From the NCBI GenBank assembly GCA_026390935.1, contig JAPLEZ010000142.1, positions 35,196-99,195 on the forward strand: DNA of 64,000 bases. The letters are read 5' to 3'. Numbering within the stretch: the stretch's first letter is position 1; each line of letters starts with the position of its first letter. The notes below the pieces were generated by a model. That model made no database searches and had not been told where the DNA came from. It saw only the letters and a program-made list of their open reading frames with translations. This document shows positions 5,545-62,951 of this stretch, piece after piece. This DNA is from Bacteroidota bacterium. Lineage in GTDB: Bacteria; Bacteroidota; Bacteroidia; Flavobacteriales_C; GCA-002722245. The position numbers and the translations under genes are program-made.

Positions 5545-5667
5545 TTTGTTTGCGATTTAATAGAGGTTAAGTCTTTAAGTGCGCAAAACTATTCAGCAAA
5601 TGGTAGATGCCATATACCCATTTTTGGGTGATTTTACTTCGATAAAATTTTGGTGATTAGAAAGGGA

Positions 5668-7241: not shown

Positions 7242-7912
7242 TTTGGGGTGGTTTTGTTTTTCTTTTTTATGTTCTTCCTGATCGTACTTACAGTATGCAC
7301 ACTGATCCCTAGTTTTTCTGCTATTTGATTGCTTTTATTTCCTTCTTTAATGAGTTTCATCACTTCATTTTCTCTGGGAGATAGCAATGTGTATTTTACT
7401 AAAGAAGTTGACACAGTTTCTTTTGCCAGCAATAAATGTTCGCCGTCAGGTTGAATTTTTTCAACTGTAAAAATTAAAGAATCAAATGGCGTTTCATCCG
7501 TTAAATCAGTTAAAAACAAAAGAGCTGTTTCTTCTTGTTGTGGCAGGTACATGTAACGGGTAAGGAAAATTTTTATGTCGTCACCATCGGCAAGGGGAAG
7601 ATTAATAGAAAACCGCAATTCTGTTTTTTCGTATTTATTTGAACTGTTCCAGGTAATTAATTCCTCTACTTTTTTGCTGTAGGGTTTGGCAACTAAATTT
7701 AAGATGAACTCATTTTCGAACATTATTTTTTGATAGATACTCTCACCAAGTATTTCTCTACAGTTCTTACTTACATGTAAATATTTATTTTGTTTAAAAT
7801 CATAAATGATGATTGCCGAAACAGAATGTGCAAAAATGGAAGACAGTAATCCTTCATCAATCTTATTTATGAAAGAAGATAAGACTGTATTCTTTGATAC
7901 AGATTCGTACAT
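7238..7912 (-). CDS. LuxR/GerE-family transcriptional regulator with N-terminal sensor (PAS-like) domain
   Basis: C-terminal LSPRENEVMKLIKEGNKSNQIAEKLGISVHTVSTIRKNI is a canonical LuxR HTH. Overlaps the downstream gene by 4 nt. Confidence 0.75.
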   Translation of the reverse strand: MYESVSKNTVLSSFINKIDEGLLSSIFAHSVSAIIIYDFKQNKYLHVSKNCREILGESIYQKIMFENEFILNLVAKPYSKKVEELITWNSSNKYEKTELRFSINLPLADGDDIKIFLTRYMYLPQQEETALLFLTDLTDETPFDSLIFTVEKIQPDGEHLLLAKETVSTSLVKYTLLSPRENEVMKLIKEGNKSNQIAEKLGISVHTVSTIRKNIKKKNKTTPN

Positions 7913-8038: not shown

Positions 8039-11000
8039 TTATTCAACAATAAATTTTATTGTTTTGTTTTGCTTGCTTTGAGCATCATGAATAGTACAGA
8101 AGTAAACACCTTTGCTTAGTTCTTGAGCCAAAACCGTTTGTGTTCCGACTTTTTCACTAATGAATGTTTTGTATATTGATTGACCAAGCACGTTGCTGAT
8201 TTCAATGTAATTGTGTTCATCAGCTGATGTGAAATGGTAAGTGATTTTGGATTCATTCACCACCGGAGAAGGGAAAATTTTGAGTTCGAACATTACGCCT
8301 TCGCCGAGAGGGGAGTTAACGTTGGTGGATCCTTTACCAACAATTTCCACATTCGCCCAGTCGCCATTGATCATGCCATAGCCAGTTTTCAAATCATTGA
8401 TAGTTAAGGCCTGGCCATCCAGCTTACGAACAGTGATGTAGTAGCAGGTACCTTTGGTATCCCAGGTGACAGGAGTGTAATTGGTTGACCGCAAATAATT
8501 GCTGCTGGCATCGTTGTTCCACATGAAATGGCTTTCATTGCCTGAAATACTGATGTCTTCTGTCATATCAACAATTTTCAGTGTTTGCGGGTTGTATTCC
8601 AATCCAAGGTCGAAACCGTATGCTGCTGCAGTGTCAGGAGCAAAGTAATTTACTGCGATACGGTAGTCGGTGGAGTTTAATTTTTCTGCTTTTTGCAAAT
8701 TGATGTTGAATGTGAATGGGCTCAACACTTTATCTGCGTCTTCAGTTTTAAGATGTAAGTTAGAAGTGTAATATTTACTGGTATAGTTCACCACATCGCC
8801 TAACAATATTCCTCTGAAGATTTCATTCGGACTGTCGGCGCATTGTTCCTGTATAGTAATACATTCAGGAACATTAGGCACATTGTCTCTCCAGTAACGC
8901 ACTTTTCCATCGTTGAAAGGATATTTGGTGGAGATCGTAAAATCGGGGTTGGTAGTTAGAATATCCGGATCGATGAATCTCCAGTCGAGTGATGGTTTAC
9001 CTTTTTGGTTTTGTACTTGTTTAAATTCGGTGATTTCACCAACCAATCTGCGTTGCAATTGAGTGATGTCGTTCGCCCGCACGGAGTCACTCATGTTCAC
9101 ATCGGCAGCAACCATTTGTCCGGCAGTTGGGATAAAAATACCAGGACAACTGGTGAGCACCATTTGATCAACACAGCTGTAGTTGTTCAATGTTGTGATG
9201 TATTCCATGGCTCTGGTATCGCGAGCATTTACATGATCAAGAAAGTTGAGTTTGGTGTTGTTGTTGATGTCGCGTTTGATCTGGATTACATTTTTGCTGG
9301 AGCTTACAGGAACAATAAAATTATTGGATGAATTGGTTCCTTTGTACGTGCCTAAAACTTTACCACCACAAGAATCAAGCACAGTGATTGTATTCAACGC
9401 ACCATTTGTTGTACCTATGGTGTGTGTAAGACCCTGGTAAAGTGAAATGCCTCCTGTTTTTTTGTAAGGTTGGTAATATTCAAGTGTTCCGGCAAAGGTT
9501 CCTGTGCCTGTTATTTTGAATGTGCCTTTATCCCAACAAACCGGTCGCTCAAAATAAGTGTACGACTCGTACATTTCACGCATCGTGAAATCAAAGGTAG
9601 TTCCAGCCGCTGGAGTTTTCTCTACAGTGAAAGGAACGCAGATTACCAGTCCCGAATCAACAAATTGTGGTGATCCCGGACCACTATGGCTGTTGTAGTA
9701 AATACTGATATTGGCGTGTCCGATATTTTTATCAGTTTCCACCGAAGGAGTTGTATTTACGCTGATGGCGTAAGTTCCTGGATAGCCGCCATTGAGCACT
9801 ACTTTTCCAAGATTTGAAGAAGATATTGTAATTACAGGCGATACATAACGCTTGTCATAACGGAGGGTGAAATCCATACCGATGATTCCTTTTCTTACGG
9901 GAACTAAAGCATTAATTGGCACGCAGATGTTTTTGTCTTTGCTTCCGCAAACCCACTTCACATCGGCGATGTCATATTCAAATCCTACTGAAATTGTATG
10001 TTGGTCGATGGCACTTCTTCCTGCAGCATCGTGCACCACCACTTGGTAAGTGCTATTCATTGTTGGTTTAACAATCAATGAATCGGCAGTTCCCAAAATA
10101 GTGCTTGAACCTACTTTAGTCCATTCATAAGTTAATGGATAAGTAACACAATTGCCTGGAGTATTGGGAACCACAGCTTTCAGCACAATTGGCGCGCTGG
10201 AGGCTTCATTGCCACAGATCACTGTTCCTCCAATGATGTTTACACTAAAGCTGTCGGGACAAGCTTTGTATGTTGGAACAATAGTATCCAATTCTGATAA
10301 TGTTGTTCCGCAGAAAGCAGATCCTGTAGTGAGAATAGAAGTTTTAGAAGTTGGAACATAAGTGTTGCAGCCACTGGCCACTTTTGCATCAAATTCCAAT
10401 GTGATGGTTTCATTACGTGCACCTTGCACCACTGCACCAGCAAAGGGAACTGTGCTGAATGCCGTGTCTTTCAGGTTGATGTTGTAAATGCCCTTATTGG
10501 ATGTTGTGCTATTGTCTTTAACACCATAAAATACTGGTCTGGACAGAGCGGCAGATCCGTATTTGATAACAATACTGTTGGTGTCTAAAGTCAATCCATC
10601 AGGGAAGTCAATATTATATTTTACGTTATTTACTTCTGAACCTGTGCTGGTGAGGTTATGTGTAAAATGAATTTTAGGATTGCTGCAATCGCCGCTCATA
10701 TCCGTTGAACTTACATTTCCTAAAATTCCGGAAGCGATGGAATAGGCTTTTATGTTTAGCGTATCATAGTAGCAAAGATTAGTTAAATTAGAAAAATCAT
10801 TTGGAAATGCATTACAATCCCATCCATAGCCAATAATGAATGTAGCCGGTTTTTTCGCATCATTGATGCATTGAGCTAAGCCACCCGTAATTTTTAATGC
10901 GATGCTCTTATTTATATCTAAGGTGTTTGCCATATATGTTCGCGAATCCAACGGGTTTACTCCGTATAATATGGATACTATATCGCCACTCACAGTTTTT

Positions 11001-14000
11001 TTCAATTCAGTTACTTGATTGATAAGTGATGAACTTAATGTGATGGGATTAAATTTTGTTTGATCGTATGTTATTGTAACAAATGGAAATTTTGCTGGAG
11101 AGCCATTGCTGCCATTGTTTAAGGAAAAATCGAAGTTGAACGATCTTGTGGTTACAGCTACAATTCCTGTTGAAGTAAGAGTACTGCTTAATTGATTTAC
11201 TGGTGTGGCCAGGTCGTTTCCGGAAGACCGAGAAACAATGACGTCCGAATCAGTAATTGGGTCCAAGTCGAAAAACGTTTTAAATCGGTATTGTAATCCT
11301 AAGGCTGAAGTGTCTTTTGGCTGATCAGGAGTACGAGTTCTGCCTGCAGGAATTTTGCTGCAAACAGCTTCGTAGTTAATATATACATCATCACGTATAT
11401 GTTCATCAACCTGACGCATGGCACTTGACTGTGTCCCACTGCTTACTTCAACATCTGTTACGTTGGTGTAAATTCCGGGGATATCAAGATGAAGAAGGGT
11501 GTAATTAATTCCACCGATAGTAGCTTTACTGGCTGGAAGTGATTGAATTCCGGATCCCTGATAATAGCTCATTGCATAGCCTATGGGTACAGTTTTTCCA
11601 TCATCAACTCCCCATCTTTGGATATTTGTGAATTGATATCCTTCAGGAATAAGTGCATCTACTGCTTCAATCATGGGTGCCGGTCGGAATTCATAATTAA
11701 ATAATTTTGGAAAATTGTGATTTCCTATTGATGAAAAGAAGGATAATCGTCGATATTTATTGCAAGATAAATCGCTCTGGGGAGTGTTGTATCCATCCGG
11801 ATACCAGTACTCTTGCTGAACTCGGACTAGATTAAAAATAGCTTCGTAACCTTCGCAATTCAACCAAGTGTTTTTATAATAAGGATTGGTATAGGGAGGT
11901 GTGGGAATTGTCTCAATTACATTTCCCGCAGGATCTTTTACTACCGGTCCTAAAACCGGATCACACTGAAATTGTGGGAAATCCCTAACGTATGCCGATT
12001 TAGGTGTGGAAGAAAAGTAAGGCATGTTTTGAAAACTCACTTCTTCGTAAGCACCTGTAGTCTTTGAATTTTCTGTGATATCCATGAAAAATTCAATTTC
12101 AATTTCATCATAGGATTTAAAGCGGAAGTCTGCAGGTAAATCTGGTGATGATGAATTTTTGTAAGCATTAATCGTATTGATATTAATTTCAAATGTATTG
12201 CTGGTGGATGCGCTTTGTGTCAACAACACCGAAGCAGGCACATTAAAGGTGTAGTTTATGCTATTGCTTGTAATAATCACTTTTATAGGATTGACTTTGT
12301 CCACTTTAAATGTGCTATAAGGAAAAGTCATTTCCAGATAGGAATATTTTAATTCACCAATCATTAAATCATCGAAATGATGGCCCTTGCAATCTTCATA
12401 TCCTGTGAGGTAATATTTAGTATTCATTTGAAGGCGGTCACCCACAATTCCAAAATTGGTGCGAATATTATTATCAGGATTTGCATCGTTGTTTATTGTG
12501 TTTACATCTGCATTGGTCAATAGATTTCCGTTATCTGGAATACCATTGTTGTTGTTATCTACTTTGCCGTAGTTTAGCCTTTTCATGGTGACAGATCTGC
12601 CAGCTCCGCCTGGAAATTGACAACCCGGACACATAATATTGGTATTTCGGGTGATTTTTAAAGAAGGCATTACCAGTGGATTCCCACAAGTAGCATCTGC
12701 TATTAGGTACATTTCCACTGAGTAATTTGGTTTTTCTTTTTTCTTTGGGTCGGCGCAATTCCCAGTTAATGAATAAGCGATATCTGCTGCGTTTAAGTAA
12801 TTGTAAAGTATGGTACTTTTTTGATCGAAATTACTTTGAGGAAGAGTGGGGTAAAGTTTGTATAAGGTAGTTAAATCAAATTCAAACATTTTTATTTTCT
12901 GATAGTCGTATGCCGGCAACTCATTCGTGGGGATATTATATCCTACTGCCGTTCCGTTGGTGTTTGTAGGCAGCCAATTATTCCCATCCGGATTTCTAAA
13001 TTGCATTGTAGTATAATATTTGGCATCGCTTCCGGTATAATAATCCAAACCTCCCTCTAACTTTAATACAATTACAAGTCGGGCTTTATCTGCTTGAAAG
13101 TTCACTCCGTCACCGGGACCAGCGCCTAAAAAAGCACCCTCATTGCTTACAAATAGATTATTCAATCGGCAATTTCCGGTTTCATTTTCCTTGAGAGTAG
13201 AAACACGTTCAATGTAAAGAGCATTATTGTCTACATGTTCTTCATAGCATCCGCCGCAAATCATGTCATTGGCGGGTCCAAAATAGGTGGTATTCGAAAT
13301 ATCCGGATTTCCTAAAGTATTTGTTGTAGTTTTGTTCTTAGCTGCATAGGAAGCCGGTTCCTGCATAAATCCATTACAGTCGTCTTTCCCAATCCATCTA
13401 TTGGTCCATTGGTCGTAATAATTTACAGTGAAATTCACTAAATCTATTTTAGGTGCGCAATTGTACACGTTGAATTCTACATAGTAGGCATCTGTTCCAG
13501 AGATATTTCCGATGGGGAAAAAAGCGTCGGAAACAACATTAGTAAAGCATTTCGGATTTGATTTAATAATAGCAAGCCATGGTTTTGTTGGGTCAGCAAC
13601 CGGTGTAATAGTAAGAGGGGATCCGCTGGCTTGGTATTTACCGGTAGAGGTATTTAAAACAGCTTTATAAATGCGTACATCATTAATTGGAATTTCTTCT
13701 TCACCGGCAGAGGATATTTTGATACCAAAATCTTTTACTGTTTCACCTAAAGTTGGATTGTGCATTTTAGTGAAGTAGCTCACTTTACGAACACCGCTAT
13801 TGGCCGTAGGACTTATAGGATTGTAAGCACAAAAATCATGAGCTTCAACATCGATATCAAAGACATCAATAAATTCATTTTTCGCTTTGGATATATATTG
13901 AACTAATCTAGTTCCTGTTGACCAGGCATCTGCCATCTGGATGCAATTTGCGCCATTGATATCGCAAACATTTAATTCAATAGAGGATTGTCCTTTGGAG

Positions 14001-14458
14001 TTCACATCAATACAGTCGATTATTTTTACTCTTCTGGTAAAAATCAAGCCTTTGTTTGCACCTATGCTGGCAGGAAGATTGGTTACAATGAGTTCGTAAG
14101 AAGTCCCTGAGTTGATGCTTCCGTTCAAGGTTGCTGTACCAGTGCTTTTCCATGCAAAGGTAGTTCCGGCAGGGATAGCGCCTCCTTCGTAAGTCACCAC
14201 AATATCTTGCACGCTTAGCGCTCCTCCGTAATTATCTTTATAAGAAATAACTCCGGTAAATGGGTTGTCCGCATTACTGGTGTTTCTTACAGTAAAACTT
14301 TTGACGAGATCGGAGCCTTTGAATGCTGTTAAATTCCCTGAAGTAAAATCCTGAAAATTAGGAGCTGTAACAATAAGTTTCAGCTCTGCTTGGGCGTTGG
14401 CGTAAAGCGATGCCAACCACACCATCATGAAGGTGAAGAAGATTTTTTTTGCTTTCAT
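8039..14458 (-). CDS. Giant (2139 aa) T9SS-secreted surface protein, paralog A, with type-A (Por_Secre_tail) C-terminal sorting domain
   Basis: N-terminal signal peptide MKAKKIFFTFMMVWLASLYANAQA. C-terminal ...GVYFCTIHDAQSKQNKTIKFIVE typical of a T9SS type-A CTD. Contains Ig-like segments, Cys-rich motifs (ICGGCY, MCPGCQFPGGAGR) and a dockerin-like motif (AADVNMSDSVRANDITQLQRRLVGE). Confidence 0.85.
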   Translation of the reverse strand: MKAKKIFFTFMMVWLASLYANAQAELKLIVTAPNFQDFTSGNLTAFKGSDLVKSFTVRNTSNADNPFTGVISYKDNYGGALSVQDIVVTYEGGAIPAGTTFAWKSTGTATLNGSINSGTSYELIVTNLPASIGANKGLIFTRRVKIIDCIDVNSKGQSSIELNVCDINGANCIQMADAWSTGTRLVQYISKAKNEFIDVFDIDVEAHDFCAYNPISPTANSGVRKVSYFTKMHNPTLGETVKDFGIKISSAGEEEIPINDVRIYKAVLNTSTGKYQASGSPLTITPVADPTKPWLAIIKSNPKCFTNVVSDAFFPIGNISGTDAYYVEFNVYNCAPKIDLVNFTVNYYDQWTNRWIGKDDCNGFMQEPASYAAKNKTTTNTLGNPDISNTTYFGPANDMICGGCYEEHVDNNALYIERVSTLKENETGNCRLNNLFVSNEGAFLGAGPGDGVNFQADKARLVIVLKLEGGLDYYTGSDAKYYTTMQFRNPDGNNWLPTNTNGTAVGYNIPTNELPAYDYQKIKMFEFDLTTLYKLYPTLPQSNFDQKSTILYNYLNAADIAYSLTGNCADPKKKEKPNYSVEMYLIADATCGNPLVMPSLKITRNTNIMCPGCQFPGGAGRSVTMKRLNYGKVDNNNNGIPDNGNLLTNADVNTINNDANPDNNIRTNFGIVGDRLQMNTKYYLTGYEDCKGHHFDDLMIGELKYSYLEMTFPYSTFKVDKVNPIKVIITSNSINYTFNVPASVLLTQSASTSNTFEININTINAYKNSSSPDLPADFRFKSYDEIEIEFFMDITENSKTTGAYEEVSFQNMPYFSSTPKSAYVRDFPQFQCDPVLGPVVKDPAGNVIETIPTPPYTNPYYKNTWLNCEGYEAIFNLVRVQQEYWYPDGYNTPQSDLSCNKYRRLSFFSSIGNHNFPKLFNYEFRPAPMIEAVDALIPEGYQFTNIQRWGVDDGKTVPIGYAMSYYQGSGIQSLPASKATIGGINYTLLHLDIPGIYTNVTDVEVSSGTQSSAMRQVDEHIRDDVYINYEAVCSKIPAGRTRTPDQPKDTSALGLQYRFKTFFDLDPITDSDVIVSRSSGNDLATPVNQLSSTLTSTGIVAVTTRSFNFDFSLNNGSNGSPAKFPFVTITYDQTKFNPITLSSSLINQVTELKKTVSGDIVSILYGVNPLDSRTYMANTLDINKSIALKITGGLAQCINDAKKPATFIIGYGWDCNAFPNDFSNLTNLCYYDTLNIKAYSIASGILGNVSSTDMSGDCSNPKIHFTHNLTSTGSEVNNVKYNIDFPDGLTLDTNSIVIKYGSAALSRPVFYGVKDNSTTSNKGIYNINLKDTAFSTVPFAGAVVQGARNETITLEFDAKVASGCNTYVPTSKTSILTTGSAFCGTTLSELDTIVPTYKACPDSFSVNIIGGTVICGNEASSAPIVLKAVVPNTPGNCVTYPLTYEWTKVGSSTILGTADSLIVKPTMNSTYQVVVHDAAGRSAIDQHTISVGFEYDIADVKWVCGSKDKNICVPINALVPVRKGIIGMDFTLRYDKRYVSPVITISSSNLGKVVLNGGYPGTYAISVNTTPSVETDKNIGHANISIYYNSHSGPGSPQFVDSGLVICVPFTVEKTPAAGTTFDFTMREMYESYTYFERPVCWDKGTFKITGTGTFAGTLEYYQPYKKTGGISLYQGLTHTIGTTNGALNTITVLDSCGGKVLGTYKGTNSSNNFIVPVSSSKNVIQIKRDINNNTKLNFLDHVNARDTRAMEYITTLNNYSCVDQMVLTSCPGIFIPTAGQMVAADVNMSDSVRANDITQLQRRLVGEITEFKQVQNQKGKPSLDWRFIDPDILTTNPDFTISTKYPFNDGKVRYWRDNVPNVPECITIQEQCADSPNEIFRGILLGDVVNYTSKYYTSNLHLKTEDADKVLSPFTFNINLQKAEKLNSTDYRIAVNYFAPDTAAAYGFDLGLEYNPQTLKIVDMTEDISISGNESHFMWNNDASSNYLRSTNYTPVTWDTKGTCYYITVRKLDGQALTINDLKTGYGMINGDWANVEIVGKGSTNVNSPLGEGVMFELKIFPSPVVNESKITYHFTSADEHNYIEISNVLGQSIYKTFISEKVGTQTVLAQELSKGVYFCTIHDAQSKQNKTIKFIVE

Positions 14459-15509: not shown

Positions 15510-15652
15510 GGTAGATTGCCCCTCTCGACTAAAAATAGAAAAATAGAATTAAAAAAAAGAATGTTTTCTTGTAGAGACGCAAAATTTTGCGTCTCAATGG
15601 ATGAATTTGATGGGAGACGGAAAATCTTCCGTCTCTACAAAACCATCTGTGT

Positions 15653-17376: not shown

Positions 17377-18974
17377 TTAAAGTATGGTCATGGTGCGGTT
17401 TATGGTGTATGTAATACCGTCGGCACCTCGCACAACAATTTCTAACGACACGCTTTCATTTTTTCGTAAGGCTCTTATAGAATTGATTTGAGTAGGATTG
17501 AAAACGCCACCGGGAGCATCTGTTTGAGGTCCCAGATCACTTCCCCTCACAAACTGTACTTTACAACTTTGTATGCTAGGAGTTGCGCTTAAAGGAAAAT
17601 CGTCGGAATATTTCGCTTTTATTTTCCCGATAGCCAATATTTCCGACTTATTGATTTTACCGCCAACTTCTTTATTTCCTAATATTATCTCCGGTTTTGG
17701 AAGTTTTTTGATCATCCATTGGTAAGTTCCCATGGTTTCCCATTTTCCTGGACTAATTTCTGCCTGAACCACGATATCCGTTTTTCCAATCGCGTTAGGT
17801 GTAAAGACAAATTGGCCATTGCCTTTTTTTGAGATGCTACATTTGCTATTAGACACACGAATTTTATCGCTTGAAATCCCTGGAACGGAAATAGTCATTT
17901 CGTTGGCCAATTTCATGTACATGATATTCAGTTTATCCGATGAAACTACTGCTGACGGCTGAGCTACCAAATATTTATTTTCAAAAGGATAAGTTAAAAA
18001 CTCTCCCTTGCGTTTCGGATTGGGATGCGGAATTCTCACTACTCCTTTCCATGTATGCTCGCCAACAGAGTTCCCCATACTTGCATAGTTTCCAAACCCG
18101 TCTGTGATATTCAATGTATCAGCTTTAGATCGAAATTTCAACTCTCCTGATGTGGTGAATAAATCGCTATCGTAATCTCCTATTAAAATGATGGCTTTTG
18201 CGTGGTATCCGACGCGGCTAAAAATATTTGCGCCTTGTATTGCTCGCCTTTCATCACATAACTGCTTTGCGCAATGGTAGCGGCCTGTATTTTATTCACC
18301 TTGTAAGTGTCTATCCCCAATTCTTCAAAAAGATAGTTGATGGTAATAGACTCGGTATTTCGTAAATAAGATTGAATATTGCTGAGGTTGGCGGTTACTG
18401 CAGCCAGCGGAAGATGCTCAGAAATTCCTGCTTCCCAAGTGGTTTTGCTTCCTTCGTAATCTTTGTATTCATCAGTCGCTAAAAGTGTGGAAATACTTTG
18501 GCGGATGGAAGTGTCTTTTTTATCAATCAAATTGACAACATATTCCTTCAAAGCAGTAATTTTTTTTCTTAAATCTTCGCCATGGCCCTTGGTCATCAGG
18601 TATTCAGCGCCGATGTCCTGATTGTCTTTCGCCAGCGGAATATTGTGCTCATCCACGCCGCCGGTATTTTCGATGAGCCACGTTTTGTGGGTTTCAATCA
18701 AAGCCGACAATTCCTGAATTTTAGCCTTCACCGTTTTGGCTTTTAGTAAGCTTTCTTTTGCCGCTTTGGAATTGGTGGCTGCTGCTGCTTCAATTTTGTT
18801 GTAGACGGGCTGAATATTTTCCACAAAATTATTGGCGGTGAGGTCGATTCCGCTTTCTAATTTTAAAAAAGCATCCAGTAAATCTTTGGATGCATTCATC
18901 GCCAACATGGCGAGTAATACGAGATACATCATGCCTATCATTTGCTGGCGGGGACTGAGTTTTTCTGCTGACAT
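17377..18974 (-). pseudogene. gldM: gldM/porM (gliding motility / T9SS motor component) disrupted by a frameshift. The N-terminal fragment is 18183..18974 and the C-terminal fragment 17377..18141, whose frame is open up to 18291
   Basis: N-terminus MSAEKLSPRQQMIGMMYLVLLAMLAMNASKD matches the GldM N-terminal TM region. The C-terminal fragment carries the GldM Ig-like domain motif SSDKLNIMYMKLANEMTISVPGISSDKI. The two fragments are in different frames with a 108-nt overlap. Adding one A to the A4 run at 18185..18188 yields a continuous protein of about 517 aa (...SDTTQKPSFLIGDYDSDLFTTSGELKFRSK...). Confidence 0.75.
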
Positions 18975-22100: not shown

Positions 22101-23707
22101 AAGTTGATGAGTGGATCGGACGTGTGCGTCACTCAACGCCAGGAGTTGGTTTGATTTCCCCTCCTCCTCACCACGATATTTACTCTATTGAGGATTTGGC
22201 GCAATTGATTTACGATTTAAAAAATGCCAACCGTGCTGCACGCATCAACGTTAAGTTGGTGTCGGAAGCTGGTGTAGGTACTATTGCTTCTGGTGTTGCC
22301 AAAGCAAAAGGTGATGTGGTGTTGATCGCTGGTTACGATGGTGGAACAGGAGCTTCTCCTATCAGTTCTATCCGTCACGCTGGATTGCCATGGGAATTGG
22401 GCTTGGCTGAAACACACCAAACATTATTATTAAACGATTTAAGAAGTCGTATCACTGTACAAACCGACGGACAATTGAGAACCGGTCGTGATATCGCCAT
22501 CGCTACTTTATTGGGAGCGGAAGAATGGGGTATCGCCACAGCTTCCTTAGTAGTTGCAGGTTGTATCATGATGCGTAAATGTCACTTGAATACTTGTCCG
22601 GTAGGAGTTGCTACACAAGATCCTGAATTGAGAAAACTCTTTACAGGAAATCCTGATCACGTAGTGAACTACTTTACTTTCGTTGCAGAAGATCTTCGTT
22701 CTATCATGGCTGAATTAGGATTCAGAACTATTGATGAAATGGTGGGAAGAACAGATTTGTTAGAAGTGAAGTACAACGAACCGAACTGGAAAACTAAAAA
22801 CTTAGATTTATCTCCTTTATTATATCGTCCGAATGTTGCTGCAGGTGTAGGTTCTTACAAGCAAAAAGAGCAGGATCATGAGATCCACGACATCATTGAT
22901 CGCAAATTAATGGAGATCGCTAAACCAGCCATTGAAAAAGGTACAGCGGTTAAAAAAGAATTCAAAATCATTAATACAGATCGTTCGGTTGGTGCAATGT
23001 TGTCGAACGAAATCTGTAAAGTTCACGGTGGCGTTGGTTTACCAGCTGGAACTATCGACATTAAATTTGTTGGTTCTGCCGGACAAAGCTTCGGAGCTTT
23101 CACCACAACAGGTGTTCGTTTCACAGTAGAAGGAGAAGCCAACGATTATTTCGGTAAAGGCTTATCGGGTGCTGAACTGGTGATTTATCCAAACAAGAAA
23201 ACCAAGTATGTTGCTGAAGACAATATGATCATTGGTAACGTTGCTTTTTACGGAGCTACTTCCGGGAAAGCTTTTATCCGCGGACAAGCGGGCGAGCGAT
23301 TCTGCGTAAGAAACTCAGGTGTTACAACCGTTGTAGAAGGTATTGGTGATCATGGTGTGGAATACATGACTGGTGGTAGAGTAGTGGTATTGGGTAAAAC
23401 CGGAAGAAACTTTGGTGCTGGTATGAGCGGTGGTTATGCCTATATCTGGGACAAATGGAAAGAATTTGCTGGAAATTTCAACAATGAATTATCTGATATC
23501 GAAGTGCTTTCTGCAGAAGACGCTGCTGAATTGAAAGCCTTGATTGAAGAGCATTTCCAATACACAAATAGTGGTGTTGCAAAAGGAATTTTGGATAACT
23601 GGGACAAAGAGTTGAAGTATTTCAAAAAGGTAATGCCACGCGATTACAAACGTGTGGTGGAAAAAAAGAAAGCAGATAAAAAAGAGAAAAAAGAATTGGT
23701 TAAATAA
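19184..23707 (+). CDS. gltB: Glutamate synthase (NADPH) large subunit
   Basis: MIENQGLYHPSFEHDSCGIGFVANL gives the amidotransferase N-terminal Cys after the propeptide. FMN and Fe-S regions. The C-terminal GXGXG domain is present. The ORF track extends upstream to a non-conserved start, and I chose the ATG at 19184. Confidence 0.9.
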   Translation: MIENQGLYHPSFEHDSCGIGFVANLKNKKSNKIIQDAIAMLENMEHRGGCGCEPETGDGAGVLIQMPHDFLKNELEKQNIELPESGQYGVCMTFFPKDADEQQRCKDLFVEYAVRLGFDVIGFRVVPTDNSMLGATSKRVEPHVEQIFLTFKDSKDPEALERRLCVLRKYANRNIHRELPNTYDSFHITSSSYKVIVYKGQLRTNQLRPYYKDLQTKEIASAMAVVHSRFSTNTTAKWRLAQPFRFIAHNGEINTIKGNVNWMRSKQVLLESTLFTVEEIDWMMPICDINRSDSSNLDNVVEILTLGGRPMAQVMMMLVPEAWQQNPGMREEKRAFYEYYSSIMEPWDGPASISFTDGKVVGATLDRNGLRPSRYCVLDDDTLIMSSEAGSLPVDESKVIEKGRLQPGKIFVADLEKGRIISDKELKDEICSAKPYGRWLKENKLTLKDLARPMKKTNAPTKGMELLQKQIAYGFTREDLNTILEPMAKDGMEPLGSMGTDVPLAVLSSQSQHLASYFKQLFAQVSNPPIDPIREKVIMSLYTNLGSQKNILAETPEHCRQIHLDDPQLSNGQLDKLRKLNDGSFKSYTINAIFSASDRPGTLENAIDEICANAERATLMGCNVLIISDRNVDANTAPIPSLLAVGAIHSDLIKKGLRTRTSLVVEAGDVIEVHHFATLIGFGANAVNAYLAGDTIRSMFEEELVAGETNIKKLLGNYAKAINYGLLKVFSKMGISTVQSYQGAQIFEALGIGPAVIEKCFSGTVSRIKGMTFDDLAKEVLIRHKRAYQNTSLDKHLFIGGYYQWKRKGEAHLFNPESISLLQKATRTNDVNVYKQFAQKINDQSQQALTLRSMLQLKKGNPIPLDQVESKESIFKRFATGAMSFGSISYEAHSTLAIAMNRIGGKSNSGEGGEDEARYAKKANGDWERSAIKQVASGRFGVTAHYLTNADELQIKIAQGAKPGEGGQLPGHKVDEWIGRVRHSTPGVGLISPPPHHDIYSIEDLAQLIYDLKNANRAARINVKLVSEAGVGTIASGVAKAKGDVVLIAGYDGGTGASPISSIRHAGLPWELGLAETHQTLLLNDLRSRITVQTDGQLRTGRDIAIATLLGAEEWGIATASLVVAGCIMMRKCHLNTCPVGVATQDPELRKLFTGNPDHVVNYFTFVAEDLRSIMAELGFRTIDEMVGRTDLLEVKYNEPNWKTKNLDLSPLLYRPNVAAGVGSYKQKEQDHEIHDIIDRKLMEIAKPAIEKGTAVKKEFKIINTDRSVGAMLSNEICKVHGGVGLPAGTIDIKFVGSAGQSFGAFTTTGVRFTVEGEANDYFGKGLSGAELVIYPNKKTKYVAEDNMIIGNVAFYGATSGKAFIRGQAGERFCVRNSGVTTVVEGIGDHGVEYMTGGRVVVLGKTGRNFGAGMSGGYAYIWDKWKEFAGNFNNELSDIEVLSAEDAAELKALIEEHFQYTNSGVAKGILDNWDKELKYFKKVMPRDYKRVVEKKKADKKEKKELVK

Positions 23708-23774
23708 TTATGAATTATGAATGTTGAATTGTGAATATTCAGCATTCAAAATTCAAAACTCAACATTAATTAAT

Positions 23775-25266: not shown

Positions 25267-25827
25267 ATGAATATTTTTCGCAAGTTAGTTTTCGTTGGTT
25301 GTTTTATTTCTTTCGGAAGTAATTTGTGTGCACAAGAAAAGTATTCTCCTTTTCATTATACTTTTTTTCAAGAAGGTGGCGCCTCTATATATTATAGTGG
25401 ATACGCACTCGGACCGTCATTAAGCTATTGGTTCCGATTTAATTTTTACGAATTCAGCGAGTTTTTATCTCTGTCGGCTTCATGTCCTGTAAGTATTGGA
25501 GGTTATTTTAGTTCCTATTCTGGTGGCTATTTTGCTTTGGACTTACCCGCTACCCTGGATTTTAATTTTGGCAACCGGGCTAATGACGAAACAGAATTTC
25601 CAGTGGGTGGATTTGCAGGTGTTGGTGCTGCTTTTAATGCTATGTATGGCATTGGAGCAAGCCGTTCATACGGACCACTTGTTCATACAGGATTTCGCAC
25701 ATCTGTTGCTGGAAGAAGTATGACTTTACGGTTTTCTTATTTGTTTGGCTTAGGCGGAATGGACGCTTCCACTCAAGTTGATGGTAATCCAAATGTGATC
25801 GGACTTGGACTTTTTTATTTAATGTAA
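25267..25827 (+). CDS. Hypothetical secreted/outer-membrane protein (Gly/aromatic-rich, small beta-barrel-like)
   Basis: Signal peptide MNIFRKLVFVGCFISFGSNLCAQE. Alternating G/Y/F pattern. Confidence 0.5.
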   Translation: MNIFRKLVFVGCFISFGSNLCAQEKYSPFHYTFFQEGGASIYYSGYALGPSLSYWFRFNFYEFSEFLSLSASCPVSIGGYFSSYSGGYFALDLPATLDFNFGNRANDETEFPVGGFAGVGAAFNAMYGIGASRSYGPLVHTGFRTSVAGRSMTLRFSYLFGLGGMDASTQVDGNPNVIGLGLFYLM

Positions 25828-25836
25828 ATCTTTACA

Positions 25837-26397
25837 GTGGAAGACAACAAAACCTTTACTAGGGTTGATTATTCAGATAAATATTTGTCCAACGAAGTTT
25901 TCGAATTGTGCACATTTATCAATTGCAATTTCTCTAATTGCAATTTTTCTAGCGCCGAATTTATTGAATGTATTTTTGAAGATTGCAATTTCAGCAATGC
26001 AAAAATGGATGGTACAGGATTGAAGGATGTAACCTTAAAAAACTGTAAAGTTTTAGGCATTGACTTTTCAAGATGCAATGATTTTTTACTCTCTTTTCAT
26101 TTTGAAAGATGCATTCTCGATTATTCAAATTTCCATAAAAAGAAAATTAGAAACACAGTGTTCAAGGAGTGTTCCGTACGTGAGGTGGATTTTTCCAATG
26201 CTGATTTATTCGGTTCGTTATTTGAAAATTGCGATTTAAGCAGAAGTATTTTTCAGCAAACAGTTTTAGAAAAAGTGGATTTCCGCACCGCAAAAAATTA
26301 CTCCATTGATTTGGAAAATAACAAGGTGAAAAAAGCTAAGTTTTCTTTGAGTGGAATTATTGGTGTGCTGGATAAATACCAGATTGTGATTGAGTAA
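25837..26397 (+). CDS. Pentapeptide-repeat protein
   Basis: Tandem A(D/N)LXX-type pentapeptides (CNFSNCNFSSAEFIECIFEDCNFSNAKMDG...). Confidence 0.8.
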   Translation: MEDNKTFTRVDYSDKYLSNEVFELCTFINCNFSNCNFSSAEFIECIFEDCNFSNAKMDGTGLKDVTLKNCKVLGIDFSRCNDFLLSFHFERCILDYSNFHKKKIRNTVFKECSVREVDFSNADLFGSLFENCDLSRSIFQQTVLEKVDFRTAKNYSIDLENNKVKKAKFSLSGIIGVLDKYQIVIE

Positions 26398-26485
26398 TTG
26401 TCTGAACCTTGATTCACTTGATGGAAGGATTAAAGGATGTGCAATCAAGATAATCTTTTAATCAAGTGAATCAAGGTTCGGACAA
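26398..26485 (+). terminator. Long hairpin immediately after the pentapeptide gene stop (about 24-bp stem, 1 mismatch, 38-nt loop)
   Basis: TTGTCTGAACCTTGATTCACTTGAT ... ATCAAGTGAATCAAGGTTCGGACAA. Confidence 0.4.
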
Positions 26486-26489
26486 TCTT

Positions 26490-26510
26490 ATTTCTTACTC
26501 ACCATATTCA
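26490..26510. repeat. 21-bp direct repeat ATTTCTTACTCACCATATTCA, copy 1. Copy 2 is at 27246..27266
   Basis: Identical 21-mers 756 bp apart. Copy 2 encodes the last codons of the Anbu gene. Confidence 0.8.
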
Positions 26511-26513
26511 TTG

Positions 26514-26789
26514 CTTCGTGAAGTTTAGCGAAGCGAACTTCGCGAAATTTCGTATCTACTTGGAAGTTTTCAACTTCCTTTTTCTGAAAGAAAAAAATTA
26601 ATGTTATTCGGGATGTCCCTCTTCGAGGAAAGAAGCTGAAAGCTTCTAAGTGCGTTCGTAAAATCACCAAGTTCGCTTCGCTAAACTTGGTGAAGCGGCG
26701 CTCAAAAATTAAAGCAATCTCATTCTTGGGTTAGAACTTCCATAAATAATTCTTTCTTAAAAAATCGGGGGATTGCTTTAATTTTTGAG
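26514..26789. repeat. Cluster of long inverted repeats: 26514..26539 with 26670..26695 (26 bp, 3 mismatches), and 26701..26719 with 26771..26789 (19 bp, perfect). Several local palindromes are also present
   Basis: Read directly from both strands. Non-coding. Confidence 0.7.
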
Positions 26790-26833
26790 TACAAAAATTT
26801 TCGCAATGACGTGCGTGTGGTTTTGTGTGAATT

Positions 26834-27247
26834 TTATTTCGGACGGTATGCGTATTTGTTAAAACCCAGCTGCCCGTCATTGTCAAATTCAATGAACCCA
26901 ATGTCACCATCATCAAAGTAGCTCCACGTTCCGTCTTCGAATTCCTGGTTTTTATTATAAATTTTGTATGAGTTGTCCTTGCTTAATTCAAGAATGCAAT
27001 CACTGCAATTTGGATAGGCGGTGAGCTCATATTTTCCCACATGTTTTTGTCCAATATCATTTTTCCAATTGTCTTTTGTTCCTATCCATATCGAATAGAG
27101 ACCTATTGAAACAATAAGAGAAGCGCCAAAAAACTTTCTCCTGTTACCCGCATATTTTATTGTTAAAAATACGAATGTGAGGCAAATTGCAATGGAAAAT
27201 AGATGTACGAGGAAAATGAAAATTCCTACAAAACCTGCGACACTCAT
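26834..27247 (-). CDS. Hypothetical small membrane protein (2 predicted TM helices plus an acidic soluble domain)
   Basis: 137 aa. Hydrophobic N-terminus (VAGFVGIFIFLVHLFSIAICLTFVFL). Start codon overlaps the stop of the Anbu gene (27244..27247). Lies inside a segment bounded by 21-bp direct repeats. Confidence 0.5.
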   Translation of the reverse strand: MSVAGFVGIFIFLVHLFSIAICLTFVFLTIKYAGNRRKFFGASLIVSIGLYSIWIGTKDNWKNDIGQKHVGKYELTAYPNCSDCILELSKDNSYKIYNKNQEFEDGTWSYFDDGDIGFIEFDNDGQLGFNKYAYRPK

Positions 27248-27963
27248 TTCTTACTCACCATATTCACCCAATCCGCCGACATTTCATGAATACCATCCTT
27301 TAAAACACTTGCCCATTGTTCGGTATAATGGCGCAAATCTTTTTCTTCAAAACGGTGCTGTTTGATGTTGAAAGAATCCTTTTCGTAAATGAATACATCA
27401 ATTGGGTAACCCACGTCGTTGGCGCAAACTTGAGTGGAGTCAAAAGACAATAATCCGGTTTTTAATGCGAATGGAATTCCAACTTCTTTGGTGATGGAGC
27501 GACTCAAAATAGGTTTGCCATAACCTGAATTTCCAATGATCATAAAGGGAGCGGATGCTCCAATTTCAATCCAATTTCCTTGCGGGTACACAAGATATAA
27601 ATGATGTTCTGTATCTCCTTCCATTTGTCCGCCAATGAGTGTATGAATATTGAAATTCAATTTGGCTTCTTCTAAATACGATTTGTCTTCTTTTGCAACG
27701 CGGCGAATTTGCTCGCTAAAAACGTTTACTACTTTAAAAATTTTGTCCATTGGTTCCGATTTCTCGGCCAGAACTTCTTTAAAATAGGTGAGTGCTTTAT
27801 CACGCACAGAGCGCAATCCCGAAGTCATTAAAAACAGAGAATTATTCCCTTCCTGATGGGTGAATAATTTTTTGCCCATGGTGGTTTCTGTTCCTGAAGT
27901 GATGCGTGTATCGGCTATTCCAACGATACCTTCTTTCAATTTTATTCCTAAGCAGTAAGTCAT
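27244..27963 (-). CDS. Anbu (ancestral beta-subunit) proteasome-like Ntn-hydrolase peptidase
   Basis: MTYCLGIKLKEGIVGIADTRITSG, with a Thr nucleophile directly after Met and a 20S beta-subunit-like fold signature. Operon context with CP-ATP-grasp, alpha-E and transglutaminase genes. Confidence 0.8.
   Translation of the reverse strand: MTYCLGIKLKEGIVGIADTRITSGTETTMGKKLFTHQEGNNSLFLMTSGLRSVRDKALTYFKEVLAEKSEPMDKIFKVVNVFSEQIRRVAKEDKSYLEEAKLNFNIHTLIGGQMEGDTEHHLYLVYPQGNWIEIGASAPFMIIGNSGYGKPILSRSITKEVGIPFALKTGLLSFDSTQVCANDVGYPIDVFIYEKDSFNIKQHRFEEKDLRHYTEQWASVLKDGIHEMSADWVNMVSKK
27246..27266. repeat. 21-bp direct repeat, copy 2 (the 3' end of the Anbu gene)
   Basis: See copy 1. Confidence 0.8.
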
Positions 27964-27964
27964 G

Positions 27965-28825
27965 TTATTGTATTTGTTGCACGTGTACCTGGTGTTCTGA
28001 GGACTGTTGATTCGCCGACGAATTTACAACTCCTGAAACAGGTAAGCAATCATCATAATCATAGCCGTGGCAAATTTTAACATAATTATGGTCACATAAA
28101 AGTTTATTTGTAGGATCTATGCCTATCCAGCCCATTTCGGGGATGTGACATTCCACCCACGCGTGCAATTGAGATGCGCCACGTATGGCTTCACTCTGGT
28201 GCAGATAGCCGCTGGTGTATCTTGCTGCTACGCCATTGTTGCGAAGTAATCCTAAAAATAGATGTGTGAAATCCTGACATACTCCTTGACGCAGTTTTAT
28301 CACCTCAGAAGCAAGTGTGGAAGTAGTGGTAACGCCAGTGATAAATTCCATGCTGCCATGCACCTGATCGCGCAAATGAATTATTTTGTCCAATAAATTT
28401 CCTTCGTTGAGCCATAAGAAGTTGGCACTTTCTTCTGGTGATAAGTAAGCTTTTGGTCGCGATTTAGTGAGATGAATGAATTTGTAATTGTCGATGATCC
28501 ACTCGTTGGATTTAAGCACGTTTATTTCTTGTCCGACAGGCAGCGATAATCGTTCAAAAGGATTTAGATCCGGCACATATATTTTAACCGAATACGCAAT
28601 GTTCAGCGTATTAAATTTATTGGTGCTTTTGTAATAAATTTCGCTTACTTCTTTTTGTCGCGCATTGCTGATCCACCAGTCGCCATCTACGTTTATAGAA
28701 AAAACCGGACTGTTAATTTGTGCGCCCAGTGCGGCATAAGGATGAATTAAAAACTTAAGGTACGCTCCCCAAACTGGAGACGCGTAGGCATTTGTTGCCG
28801 TATACTCTAATTGATATTGACGCAT
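27965..28825 (-). CDS. Transglutaminase-like cysteine protease family protein
   Basis: CQDFTHLFLGLLRNNGVAARYTSGYL...HAWVECHIPEMGWIGIDPTN shows the Cys-His-Asp transglutaminase core. Confidence 0.8.
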   Translation of the reverse strand: MRQYQLEYTATNAYASPVWGAYLKFLIHPYAALGAQINSPVFSINVDGDWWISNARQKEVSEIYYKSTNKFNTLNIAYSVKIYVPDLNPFERLSLPVGQEINVLKSNEWIIDNYKFIHLTKSRPKAYLSPEESANFLWLNEGNLLDKIIHLRDQVHGSMEFITGVTTTSTLASEVIKLRQGVCQDFTHLFLGLLRNNGVAARYTSGYLHQSEAIRGASQLHAWVECHIPEMGWIGIDPTNKLLCDHNYVKICHGYDYDDCLPVSGVVNSSANQQSSEHQVHVQQIQ

Positions 28826-28828
28826 AAA

Positions 28829-29767
28829 TTAAAAGGAAAAATATTCTTCTACCAGTTTATTGCCAATAAGATAAATATCATATTGGGTTTTCATGATAAA
28901 GGAAGGCAAATCTTCGTTGATTTCCTCAATGGTGAGGTGTTTTAATCCTGAATATTTTTTGTTGGCTAAAAATTCTGCAGAATCCTTGCTAGGAGTTTTT
29001 GCATCGCTGATGACTTGAATTTGTTCGGTCACTTTTCGCAGGCAACTGAGCACTGATCGGGGAAAGCGATCATTGAGCAGCAAAAATTCCAATGAATCAT
29101 TCATGTTGGGAGCTCTGCGGTAGTGCTTTCTGCTCATGTCGAAAGACTCCAATCCACGCAGTAATGCTGCCAATTGATGTGTTAGTAGGGATATGTTTTC
29201 TTTTTCATTTCCTTTCAAGGCTTCTATGTCGTCCCACTTGGTTTTGATGGCTCTCAAAATTTGTGCAGCGCGTTCTAAAAATATTCCCAATTTAATAATC
29301 GACCATGCTTCATTGTGCACCAATGTGCCATCCATTTGGCCCTTGATGATGGTAAGTTGTTCAATGCTGCTTTGAGTAAAGTCGAAGAGGCCGGTAGTAC
29401 GATATTTTTTTTGATCGTAGTTTAAAACGAAGTGGTAGTATTTATTGATGGACTCCCACAATTCAGTACTAATGATATCTCTGGCGCCTCTTGCATTTTC
29501 TCGGGCATAGATGATACTTGTAATAATGGAGGATGGATTTTTTTTATCAAAGGCAACGGTTTGCAAAACATTTTGTTCGTTGAATTCTTCTTTCGGCAAA
29601 GAACTTCCATTCATTTTTAAAATAGAATTTAGCACCAGCTCTTTTTTAATGAGAATGGGTGCATCCATTGCCGAAAAATAATTCACTTTAGTATAGCGCG
29701 CCGAGTGCTCTATCCGTTCGAGGTAGCGGCCCATCCAAAATAAATTATTTGCAATCCGTGATAACAT
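28829..29767 (-). CDS. Alpha-E domain protein
   Basis: N-terminus MLSRIANNLFWMGRYLERIEHSARY is the hallmark of the alpha-E family that partners with circularly permuted ATP-grasp proteins. Confidence 0.8.
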   Translation of the reverse strand: MLSRIANNLFWMGRYLERIEHSARYTKVNYFSAMDAPILIKKELVLNSILKMNGSSLPKEEFNEQNVLQTVAFDKKNPSSIITSIIYARENARGARDIISTELWESINKYYHFVLNYDQKKYRTTGLFDFTQSSIEQLTIIKGQMDGTLVHNEAWSIIKLGIFLERAAQILRAIKTKWDDIEALKGNEKENISLLTHQLAALLRGLESFDMSRKHYRRAPNMNDSLEFLLLNDRFPRSVLSCLRKVTEQIQVISDAKTPSKDSAEFLANKKYSGLKHLTIEEINEDLPSFIMKTQYDIYLIGNKLVEEYFSF

Positions 29768-29776
29768 ATCTTTGTT

Positions 29777-31231
29777 TTAAATCACCCAGGTGTCCTTTGA
29801 ACCACCACCCTGCGATGAGTTGACAATTAAATTTCCTCTTTTTAAAGCTACACGAGTCAAGCCGCCTGGCAACACGTATTCGATGTTTTTTCCCAACAAA
29901 CAAAAAGTTCGTAAATCGATGTGACGCGATTCAATGATGTTTTCTCCTTCAATAAATGTTGGATGAACCGACAATGACATGATAGGTTGCGCTATATATT
30001 TTCTGCGGTTTTGCTGTATTTGTAGTTTTACCTCATTGATTTGTTCTTTGGTTAAAGTATTTCCAATGGAAATTCCATAACCTCCAGATTCATCCACCGG
30101 CTTGATCACCAGCTTGTCAACGTTTTCCAATACATATTTTAAATCGGAGTCAATACCGCAACGATAAGTTGGAACATTTTTAATGATTTGCTCTTCACCT
30201 AAATAGTATTTAATGATTTCGGGCATATAGGCATATACGGCTTTATCGTCGGCAACGCCTGTTCCGGGAGCGTTCACTAAGGTGACGTTGCCAGCAAGAT
30301 ATGCGCTCATTAAGCCTGGAGTTCCTAAAACAGAATCGGGATTGAACAACAATGGATCCAAGAATGGATCATCAATACGACGGTAAATCACGTGCACTCT
30401 GCGAGAGCCATGAATGGTTTTCATGTACACCACATCGCTTTTTACAAATAAGTCTCTTCCTTCAACCAATTCAACGCCCATGCTTTGTGCTAAAAAGCAA
30501 TGCTCAAAGTAGGCAGAATTGTACATTCCCGGACTCAGTACTACGCAGTTGGGAGCACTGTTTCCCGGACTCACCGATTGCAACATCGTGAGCAGTTTTT
30601 CGGGATAATCGATAATAGGTTGAGGTTGACATTTACTGAATAATTTCGGGAAAGTCTTTTTCAAAGTATTGCGATTGGCCAATACATAACTTACTCCCGA
30701 AGGGCAACGCACGTTGTCTTCCAGCACATAATATTCGCCATCGCTGTGACGGATCAAATCGGTTCCTGAAATGTGGTTGTAAATGCCGCCCAGTGGATTG
30801 AATCCTTCCATTACCGACAACATATTAGCACTGGAGTAAATTAGTTCCTTTGGAACAACTCCATCTTTCAATATTTTTTTATCGTGGTATAAGTCCTTTA
30901 AAAATTCATTAATGGCGTGGTTTCTTTGCAAGATGCCCTTTTCAATTTTAGTCCATTCGTCGTGAGCAATAATGCGTGGAATAAAGTCGAAAGGAAATAT
31001 TTTTTCAGATCCCAATGGATTGTCGGAATAAACTGCAAAGGTGATTCCTTCATTAAAAAAAACAATTTTGGCTTCTTCGTTGAACTTGCAATAATCTTGG
31101 GTGGTGTATTGTGAAAATTGTTCCGATAGAGCGTCATAATGCTGTCGGACCTTCATTTCTTTAGAAACAAACTCGTCGTAAACTCCATCCTTCGGAGTGT
31201 ATGCTGAATTGAAAAGTTGTTTTTGTTCCAA
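29777..31231 (-). CDS. Circularly permuted type-2 ATP-grasp protein
   Basis: 484 aa. Operon partner of alpha-E, transglutaminase and Anbu. The architecture matches the described CP-ATP-grasp amidoligase family. Confidence 0.75.
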   Translation of the reverse strand: MEQKQLFNSAYTPKDGVYDEFVSKEMKVRQHYDALSEQFSQYTTQDYCKFNEEAKIVFFNEGITFAVYSDNPLGSEKIFPFDFIPRIIAHDEWTKIEKGILQRNHAINEFLKDLYHDKKILKDGVVPKELIYSSANMLSVMEGFNPLGGIYNHISGTDLIRHSDGEYYVLEDNVRCPSGVSYVLANRNTLKKTFPKLFSKCQPQPIIDYPEKLLTMLQSVSPGNSAPNCVVLSPGMYNSAYFEHCFLAQSMGVELVEGRDLFVKSDVVYMKTIHGSRRVHVIYRRIDDPFLDPLLFNPDSVLGTPGLMSAYLAGNVTLVNAPGTGVADDKAVYAYMPEIIKYYLGEEQIIKNVPTYRCGIDSDLKYVLENVDKLVIKPVDESGGYGISIGNTLTKEQINEVKLQIQQNRRKYIAQPIMSLSVHPTFIEGENIIESRHIDLRTFCLLGKNIEYVLPGGLTRVALKRGNLIVNSSQGGGSKDTWVI

Positions 31232-62647: not shown

Positions 62648-62951
62648 CGTTGCAGGATTACGTTTAGAAAAAAAATTAGTTTGCATAGAAAGATCAGTAA
62701 TAAGCATAACTCCAATTTAAAGTAAATCAAAGCAGAAACAAAGTAAAACCATCAAAAGTTACAGCGTAATAAATTGATTTACAGATAGTTAAATTGATGG
62801 TAATTCACGCTTACAAGGCAAAATCGTTATTTGCTAAAAATGTGATAATGAGGCTATTGATTATTTTGGTAACAAGAAGGTTTTACACTTAGTGCGCAAT
62901 TGCAAAAGTGAAGCGTAATTTTATTTTACTAAAAAAGGAGGGAGATTTTTT

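Follow-up and report, generated by a model that had tools for sequence, protein, structure and literature searches.

Our analysis showed that the end of the Anbu operon in a Bacteroidota bacterium (GenBank assembly GCA_026390935.1, contig JAPLEZ010000142.1, positions 35,196 to 99,195; this 64-kb stretch is called the window below) carries 846 nt of lineage-specific DNA at 26398-27243. Anbu is the ancestral beta-subunit proteasome-like peptidase. The extra DNA contains a gene for a 137-aa membrane protein and three long hairpins, and the last codons of Anbu occur twice, once at the end of the gene and once beyond the new gene, as an exact 21-nt direct repeat. This is an insertion scar through which the Anbu operon has acquired an accessory gene, and a mobile element is not demonstrable in it. 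We tentatively regard 26398-27243 as a composite insertion and trace the repeat, as a scar, to one event of illegitimate or short-homology recombination. The locus gives a base-by-base record of a conserved Anbu operon gaining a cistron that is probably translationally coupled, and also of spacer-less convergent genes gaining terminator-like hairpins.

The 21-mer, ATTTCTTACTCACCATATTCA, was found at 26490-26510 (distal copy) and 27246-27266 (proximal copy), exactly the two sites given in the initial annotation of this locus, and no further site was found in the 64 kb when up to three mismatches were allowed. Two or more matches were seen in 0 of 100 shuffles (chance expectation 0.01). With one mismatch the repeat grows to 24 nt, 26487-26510 against 27243-27266, of which 23 positions are identical. 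The copies are spaced 756 nt start to start, leaving 735 nt between the exact copies. Their edges are sharp, with flank identity at the random level both on the Anbu side (18/60) and on the other (11/40). A larger, older duplication around the repeat was considered and is ruled out by this flank identity.

On the minus strand, the proximal copy codes for NMVSKK, the last six residues of Anbu (27244..27963), and its last exact base is the T of the Anbu TGA stop. The distal copy closes a 60-aa TTG-started open reading frame (ORF), 26488..26670, as NMVSKK-TAA. Both readings agree with the initial annotation, which had also called the short ORF spurious. We reached the same view, because the ORF runs through the 184-nt hairpin and has no family match; no credible family was found for it, and an exact look-up returned no gene product on record. 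The single mismatch within the 24 nt is an A in the distal copy and a G in the proximal one; the other 9 of 10 adenines are retained. The 21-mer is not a common genomic motif. It had no match in an exact search of metagenome contigs (241 million records), and among the 97 loci fetched for comparison it was found only in L001, a contig from the same organism as the window. A literature search for the CGTCATTGCGAG motif returned nothing but unrelated primer sequences.

Two Logan contigs of run SRR20698652, L001 and L093, are 100% and 99.97% identical to the window. They confirm the proximal junction and the side of the neighbouring pentapeptide-repeat protein gene, and they stop at 26784 and 26427. 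It could be argued that assembly created the distal junction as an artefact, through a repeat of k-mer size or through the merging of filled and empty haplotypes, since the distal copy lies uncovered between these same-organism contigs and the exact repeat length of 21 is a common minimum k-mer size. We consider this very unlikely. The proximal junction was recovered with 100% identity in a separate assembly by Logan, which uses k=31. A de Bruijn contig needs k-mers across GCAA|TGAAT, so that the junction must exist in the reads. In addition, foldback artefacts would not look like these hairpins, whose palindromes are imperfect, and the similarity continues across a mismatch to 23/24, which a k-mer join would not give.

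The initial annotation had proposed a search for related genomes with an empty site, and such genomes were found. The Anbu cluster at ≥90% identity has six members. In four independent groundwater or metagenome assemblies (L084-L087; Anbu 94% identical in amino acids; DNA 83-86% identical), Anbu ends as ...EWVNLVGEKK-TAA and is followed with zero spacer by TTACTCAATCAC, the stop of the convergent pentapeptide gene. BLAST homology to the window ends by about 27256 and resumes at 26399, and by eye the shared terminal codons reach the stop. Because the two stops abut in these relatives, the whole of 26398-27243 is extra in the window. The empty sites are about 84% identical to the window in DNA and have another Anbu tail (TGAATTTGGTGGGAGAAAAAAAAT), and the 89-nt hairpin next to the pentapeptide stop (I2) is missing from them too. 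The insert is therefore an 846-nt composite and not the 735-nt unit between the repeat copies that had been taken as the whole. No relative carries the arrangement; its presence in relatives with divergent repeats had been named as the mark of an ancient fixed sequence.

The stop codons and the tail of Anbu show where the duplication arose. All relatives end in AAATAA, and the distal copy also has TAA; TGA is found in the proximal copy alone. The window tail, MVSKK, is derived in comparison with the VG[DE]KK of all relatives, and both copies of the repeat have the derived form, which indicates that the duplication took place in the window's own lineage. Other states of the junction were found as well. 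In the Logan contigs L088 and L090 the pentapeptide gene is absent and the Anbu stop lies 4 nt from a convergent homolog of 25267..25827; around this presence or absence, a long repeat on the flanks was not visible. In L002 and L089 (Flavobacteriales metagenome-assembled genome nzgw150; Anbu 97% identical in amino acids) Anbu is followed by different DNA with CGTCATTGCGA-type hairpins, in which both contigs end. No significant remnant of the membrane gene was detected in the post-Anbu DNA of L002, as 43 of 300 shuffles scored as well as its alignment. The junction thus varies among these three groups, and this Anbu/porin-like convergent site at the end of the operon is a small hotspot where members of the groundwater Flavobacteriales clade have gained and lost genes.

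In the orientation of Anbu, the insert consists of the membrane gene, a 22-nt spacer, hairpin A, hairpin B, GCAA, the distal 21-mer with its TAA, a G, and hairpin I2, after which comes the pentapeptide stop. Between the repeat copies lie the 137-aa gene and 323 nt of DNA rich in inverted repeats, which matches the earlier description of a small membrane protein gene with about 320 bp of such DNA. The 137-aa protein has two N-terminal transmembrane helices followed by a β-rich domain of about 75 aa with a conserved CxxC. An AlphaFold2 model (predicted local distance difference test, pLDDT, 80.5) places the helices at residues 3-31 and 36-67 and then six strands. By the positive-inside rule applied to the KYAGNRRK loop between the helices, the CxxC-bearing domain is predicted to lie outside the cytoplasm. 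No Pfam or NCBIfam family matched the protein, and its fold matches to small lipocalin-like lipoproteins were not significant. An exhaustive HMMER search of 1.84 billion representatives found 88 clusters of about 140 aa that share this architecture, of which 32 scored E≤1e-10; these define a family of ~140-aa membrane proteins that had no name before. The protein in the window begins MSVAGF. Its relatives begin MSTAGF, MSAFGE or MAALGE, and the start is therefore native and not an artefact of fusion to the end of Anbu.

The family is sporadic. Apart from the window, homologs were found in five other contexts (seven loci) with unrelated neighbourhoods, and in none of these were flanking direct repeats of the present kind found. 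In L083 the homolog is 5′-truncated and adjoins a convergent ACT-domain gene, and in L094-L096 and L097 the homologs lie within ordinary chromosomal neighbourhoods. L092, the sole locus contributed by a narrower profile of the family in the metagenome scan, has its homolog between a 21-nt tandem array upstream (849-1142, ~14 copies) and a nested 136-nt hairpin downstream (1746-1881), whose core is CGACCCCTACGGGGTCG. The remaining context, L082, is described below together with integrons.

In the reading we prefer, the ancestor probably had the order Anbu-NMVSKK-TAA-G-I2-pentapeptide, with hairpin I2 already present. About 735 nt of foreign DNA, comprising the promoterless 137-aa gene with its native ATG and hairpins A and B, would then have landed at the end of Anbu. 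At the proximal joint, AATGAG of the cassette would have met the resident Anbu terminus AAATAAG; AAATGAG and AAATAAG are identical at 6 of 7 positions. The joint would lie within AAAT/GAG, because ATG-AGT, to judge by the N-termini of the family, is the start that the cassette brought with it, and its position in the 6/7 match of AATGAG/AAATAAG would also account for the two extra matching bases past the mismatch. The other joint would have re-entered the resident sequence 21 nt upstream, so that the insert came to have an Anbu tail at either side. This could have happened by a template switch, by homology-facilitated illegitimate recombination, or by a fragment entering at a staggered break. 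We do not think that a dedicated recombinase made the repeat. The likeness to the illegitimate and template-switch scars that natural transformation and replication repair leave behind lies in a single event without mobility genes, a putative joint where homology is short and imperfect (AAAT[G/A]AG), and foreign DNA bordered by a brief duplicate of the recipient sequence.

Several points weigh against this scar reading. There is only one instance, no intermediate genome with a single copy of the 21-mer is available, and we infer the order of events. The distal copy falls in the 26428-26783 gap of the Logan contigs and is supported by the window assembly alone. The ATGA overlap of stop and start is a tidy result for a random joint and calls for selection or microhomology; such a neat and unusually functional overlap also distinguishes the locus from ordinary scars. 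No microhomology is visible at the distal joint, GCAA|TGAAT, for which there is no donor sequence to compare, and in this too the locus differs from known scars. Finally, Campbell-type or site-specific integration via a 21-nt core would leave a perfect duplication just as well.

The Anbu operon, all on the minus strand, comprises genes for ATP-grasp (29777-31231), Alpha-E (28829-29767) and transglutaminase (27965-28825) proteins, with Anbu last. Matches on the operon proteins were to the Pfam families Proteasome, CP_ATPgrasp_2, Alpha-E and Transglut_core, and PDB Anbu chains matched residues 1-225 of the 239-aa protein with E values from 1e-35 to 1e-27 (1e-35 to 1e-31 for 5loy, 5nyj and 5nyf); an exact look-up of the Anbu protein sequence found no record. 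The Anbu operon is known to consist of a circularly permuted ATP-grasp, Alpha-E, transglutaminase and Anbu (PMC5666114), and the four canonical genes are found here in a row on one strand. The difference is an extra, fifth cistron, found in this lineage only. The duplicated codons belong to the last ~14 residues of Anbu, outside the conserved core, and the reading frame is intact, with the stop now TGA. As this TGA overlaps the ATG of the newcomer (ATGA), the membrane gene is probably transcribed with the Anbu operon and translationally coupled to it. Among 79 distant Anbu loci, none had a small membrane gene after Anbu; where any gene followed, it usually encoded a protein of ~270-290 aa.

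The main rival to the scar reading is a circle that already carried its own ~21-nt Anbu tail fused to the ATG of the membrane gene and integrated via this core, either site-specifically or in Campbell fashion. The proximal copy would then be an element-borne replacement terminus and the distal copy the displaced original, and the 735-nt unit would have been mobilised in trans or would be the remnant of a larger element minus its integrase. It is known that tyrosine-recombinase elements target tRNA, tmRNA and protein genes, using the 3′ end as attB and carrying a replacement terminus. We find this model unlikely, though it deserves more weight than any of the other alternatives. The repeats are identical and sharp-edged, and one of them overlaps the 3′ end of a gene; an empty site exists; and the distal copy keeps the ancestral TAA beside its ancestral neighbour while the proximal one has a derived TGA fused to the cassette ATG. 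The perfect identity and the TAA/TGA asymmetry are explained by the circle equally well as by a scar. The L082 homolog (P0002), which lies between attC-like repeats, hints that members of the family can travel in cassettes.

The searches for mobility functions gave no further support to the circle. The Pfam scan of the window covered 35 of its 42 ORFs of at least 120 aa and the 60-aa ORF, and neither these nor the insert yielded a domain of an integrase, recombinase, transposase or reverse transcriptase. No second copy of the segment was found in the window, or in plasmids and phages searched by DNA and by protein, and the 21-mer has no second instance, being absent from the 241 million metagenome records. 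On direct reading, CTTATTTCTTACTCACCATATTCA and its flanks have none of the dyad symmetry that is usual for recombinase core sites, including those of the Xer/dif type (IMEX, pdif), in which a 6-8-nt spacer separates a pair of inverted arms of ~11 nt each within ~28 nt. The membrane gene stands at no other Anbu locus, the 79 distant ones included, and its other homologs are without flanking repeats. The model also requires a donor in which the gene already stood behind an identical Anbu tail, and we see no plausible one. Set beside integrative islands that use a gene 3′ end as attB, the locus shares a ~20-nt direct repeat with one copy ending an intact gene and the other displaced; its empty sites are those of relatives at about 84% DNA identity with a different Anbu tail. 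It differs in the size of the insert (735-846 nt), in having no integrase, excisionase or second instance, and in being targeted to a protein gene at its non-conserved tail. Of the claim that an element integrated into the Anbu 3′ end with a replacement terminus, the insertion, the empty site and the TAA/TGA pattern hold, while no integrase, terminal inverted repeat, attC core or recurrence was found. That the repeats mediate excision, the alternative offered with that claim, is possible in principle, since repeats of 21-24 nt could mediate a precise deletion.

A bolder version of the circle model is that the 735-nt unit is an integrase-less 'operon-tail cassette', mobilised in trans and inserting via a core of ~21 nt identical to a host gene tail. 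Such a cassette would bring a stop-start overlap with it for expression from the host operon, a logic like that of integron cassettes without attC or attI. This seems improbable to us. If a site-specific model of this kind were true, it would define a new class of minimal cassettes; nothing found requires it.

An ordinary integron gene cassette that used the end of the Anbu operon as a secondary site was also considered and is similarly improbable, if anything slightly more so. The insert has a single promoterless ORF, which could be read from an upstream promoter, followed by long imperfect palindromes. In L082, a 1.4-kb Joint Genome Institute (JGI) contig, the homolog P0002 (50% identical) lies in a two-ORF unit between two attC-like repeats of about 130 nt, at 274-405 and 1186-1320, which are 89% identical. 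The identity of these repeats ends in ...AAAACGTTG, the enclosed unit starts GTTGTGC, and its 3′ repeat has the complementary GCACAAC. We regard this pair as an integron attC-like signature. In the window, neither RYYYAAC nor GTTRRRY attC cores turned up when 26398-27243 was scanned on both strands with regular expressions, and no intI or cassette array was found among the ORFs scanned. The usual length of attC is 57-141 nt, and hairpin B, at 184 nt, is beyond it; the palindromes of the insert measure 89, 184 and 89 nt and share no sequence with the L082 repeats. The membrane ORF has no 5′ spacer, as its ATG overlaps the Anbu stop. Integron recombination, furthermore, does not duplicate 21 nt of the target.

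The repeat might instead be the target-site duplication of a transposon or an element like a miniature inverted-repeat transposable element (MITE), with the hairpins as its ends. Direct repeats do flank a discrete palindrome-rich insert, and in L002 and L089 Anbu is followed by a relative of hairpin A that is oppositely oriented. We nevertheless give this very little credence. No transposase was found, and the insert ends (GAGTGTCGCAGG... against TTGCTTCGTGAAG...) have no terminal inverted repeats; read as GAGTGTCGCAGGTTTT... and, for the reverse complement of the other end, TTGCTTCGTGAAGTTT..., they are unrelated. A duplication of 21 nt falls outside the lengths known for almost all families of bacterial transposons. 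No other copies are present in the 64 kb, and one end of the supposed element would be the first base after the AT of a native start codon.

A pair of functional copies, either the template and variable repeats of a diversity-generating retroelement (DGR) or a conserved regulatory motif, is the least probable of the explanations we weighed. One copy does lie at a gene 3′ end and the other downstream in non-coding DNA, and they differ only at one position, where the distal copy has an adenine. DGR repeats are far longer, at least about 60 nt, than the 21-24 nt found here, all adenines save that one are unchanged, and no reverse transcriptase is encoded in the ORFs scanned. The second copy is absent in relatives, and the Anbu tail is outside the conserved fold.

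The three hairpins are among the strongest palindromes of the window. The non-coding part of the insert folds at −92 kcal/mol (z = −11.7), and hairpin B, which abuts the distal repeat, at about −77 to −80 kcal/mol as RNA. The hairpins probably act as terminators or insulators between the two convergent units. I2 folds at −50.8 kcal/mol as plus-strand RNA and at −39.9 kcal/mol as minus-strand RNA, a gap of 11 kcal/mol due to G-U asymmetry. This suggests that it is a terminator of the pentapeptide transcript rather than of the Anbu operon. An Rfam scan of 26200-27400 gave only sub-threshold matches to miRNA hairpins, i.e. to generic hairpins. No other copies of the hairpin arms were found in 90 fetched loci, and the core of hairpin A had a single, chance match in viral contigs, inside a coding region. 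The GC content of the insert and its GC content at third codon positions (GC3) are not deviant and give no foreign signal, consistent with a donor whose base composition was much the same.

The flank of hairpin A is related to the element 3′ of Anbu in L002 and L089, where a 50-nt piece of L002 aligns in the opposite orientation. The palindromic element, ACGTCATTGCGA ... TCGCAATGA, was seen at 5780-5870 in L002, at 2515-2559 in L089 and at 26765-26815 in the window. The L002 and L089 contigs both end inside it, which suggests a repeated, assembly-breaking element. In having three long imperfect palindromes packed between convergent genes, and one hairpin with a relative at the corresponding site of L002 and L089, the insert resembles the palindromic intergenic elements of Bacteroidota, which are like repetitive extragenic palindromic (REP) sequences or MITEs; L092 carries a different hairpin after its homologous gene. 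The difference is that the window hairpins are single-copy in 64 kb, so that a family is not definable from these data.

Features of the Anbu-operon end in the window (positions of the window; a dot marks features given without strand)
Feature	Position	Strand	Remarks
Pentapeptide-repeat protein gene	25837..26397	+	Convergent with Anbu; its ancestral neighbour in the L084-L087 lineage
Whole lineage-specific insert, 846 nt	26398..27243	.	Relative to relatives with abutting Anbu and pentapeptide stops
Hairpin I2, 36-nt arms, 89% complementary	26398..26486	.	Between distal repeat and pentapeptide stop
Distal repeat copy, displaced, non-coding	26487..26510 (exact 26490-26510)	.	Copy of the Anbu tail; ancestral TAA kept
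Spurious 60-aa ORF	26488..26670	-	Hairpin B and the distal repeat together give rise to it
Hairpin B, 184-nt imperfect palindrome	26513..26696	.	68-nt arms, 76% complementary; 20-nt perfect core
Hairpin A, perfect 19-nt arms, 51-nt loop	26701..26789	.	CGTCATTGCGA-type motif flanking, to about 26815
Gene of 137-aa accessory membrane protein	26834..27247	-	ORF; ATG overlaps Anbu stop (ATGA)
Proximal repeat copy, 21 nt (24 nt as 27243-27266)	27246..27266	.	Anbu C-terminal NMVSKK and the T of TGA
Anbu, proteasome-like peptidase, 239 aa	27244..27963	-	PDB and Pfam matches; last gene of the operon

Elsewhere in the window, two further palindromes were noted, an AT-rich one of 74 nt at the gltB/gltD junction (23700-23773) and a double GAGACG...CGTCTC hairpin after the cobalamin adenosyltransferase gene (15569-15640). 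The gldM gene (17377-18974, minus strand) is apparently split or frameshifted, as one ORF covers GldM domain 1 and reaches into domain 2, and the next, in a different frame, has domains 3 and 4. Three tandem paralogs of LuxR/GerE-family regulators, one with a PAS domain, were found at 5668-7912 (minus strand), and a gene for a HipA-like toxin kinase (HipA_C and Couple_hipA) at 51228-52454 (minus strand). An open frame of at least 1855 aa at 1-5700 (minus strand) runs off the start of the window, and several other very large genes, including those at 8039-14458 and 57305-62707, carry a C-terminal sorting domain of the type IX secretion system (T9SS tail).

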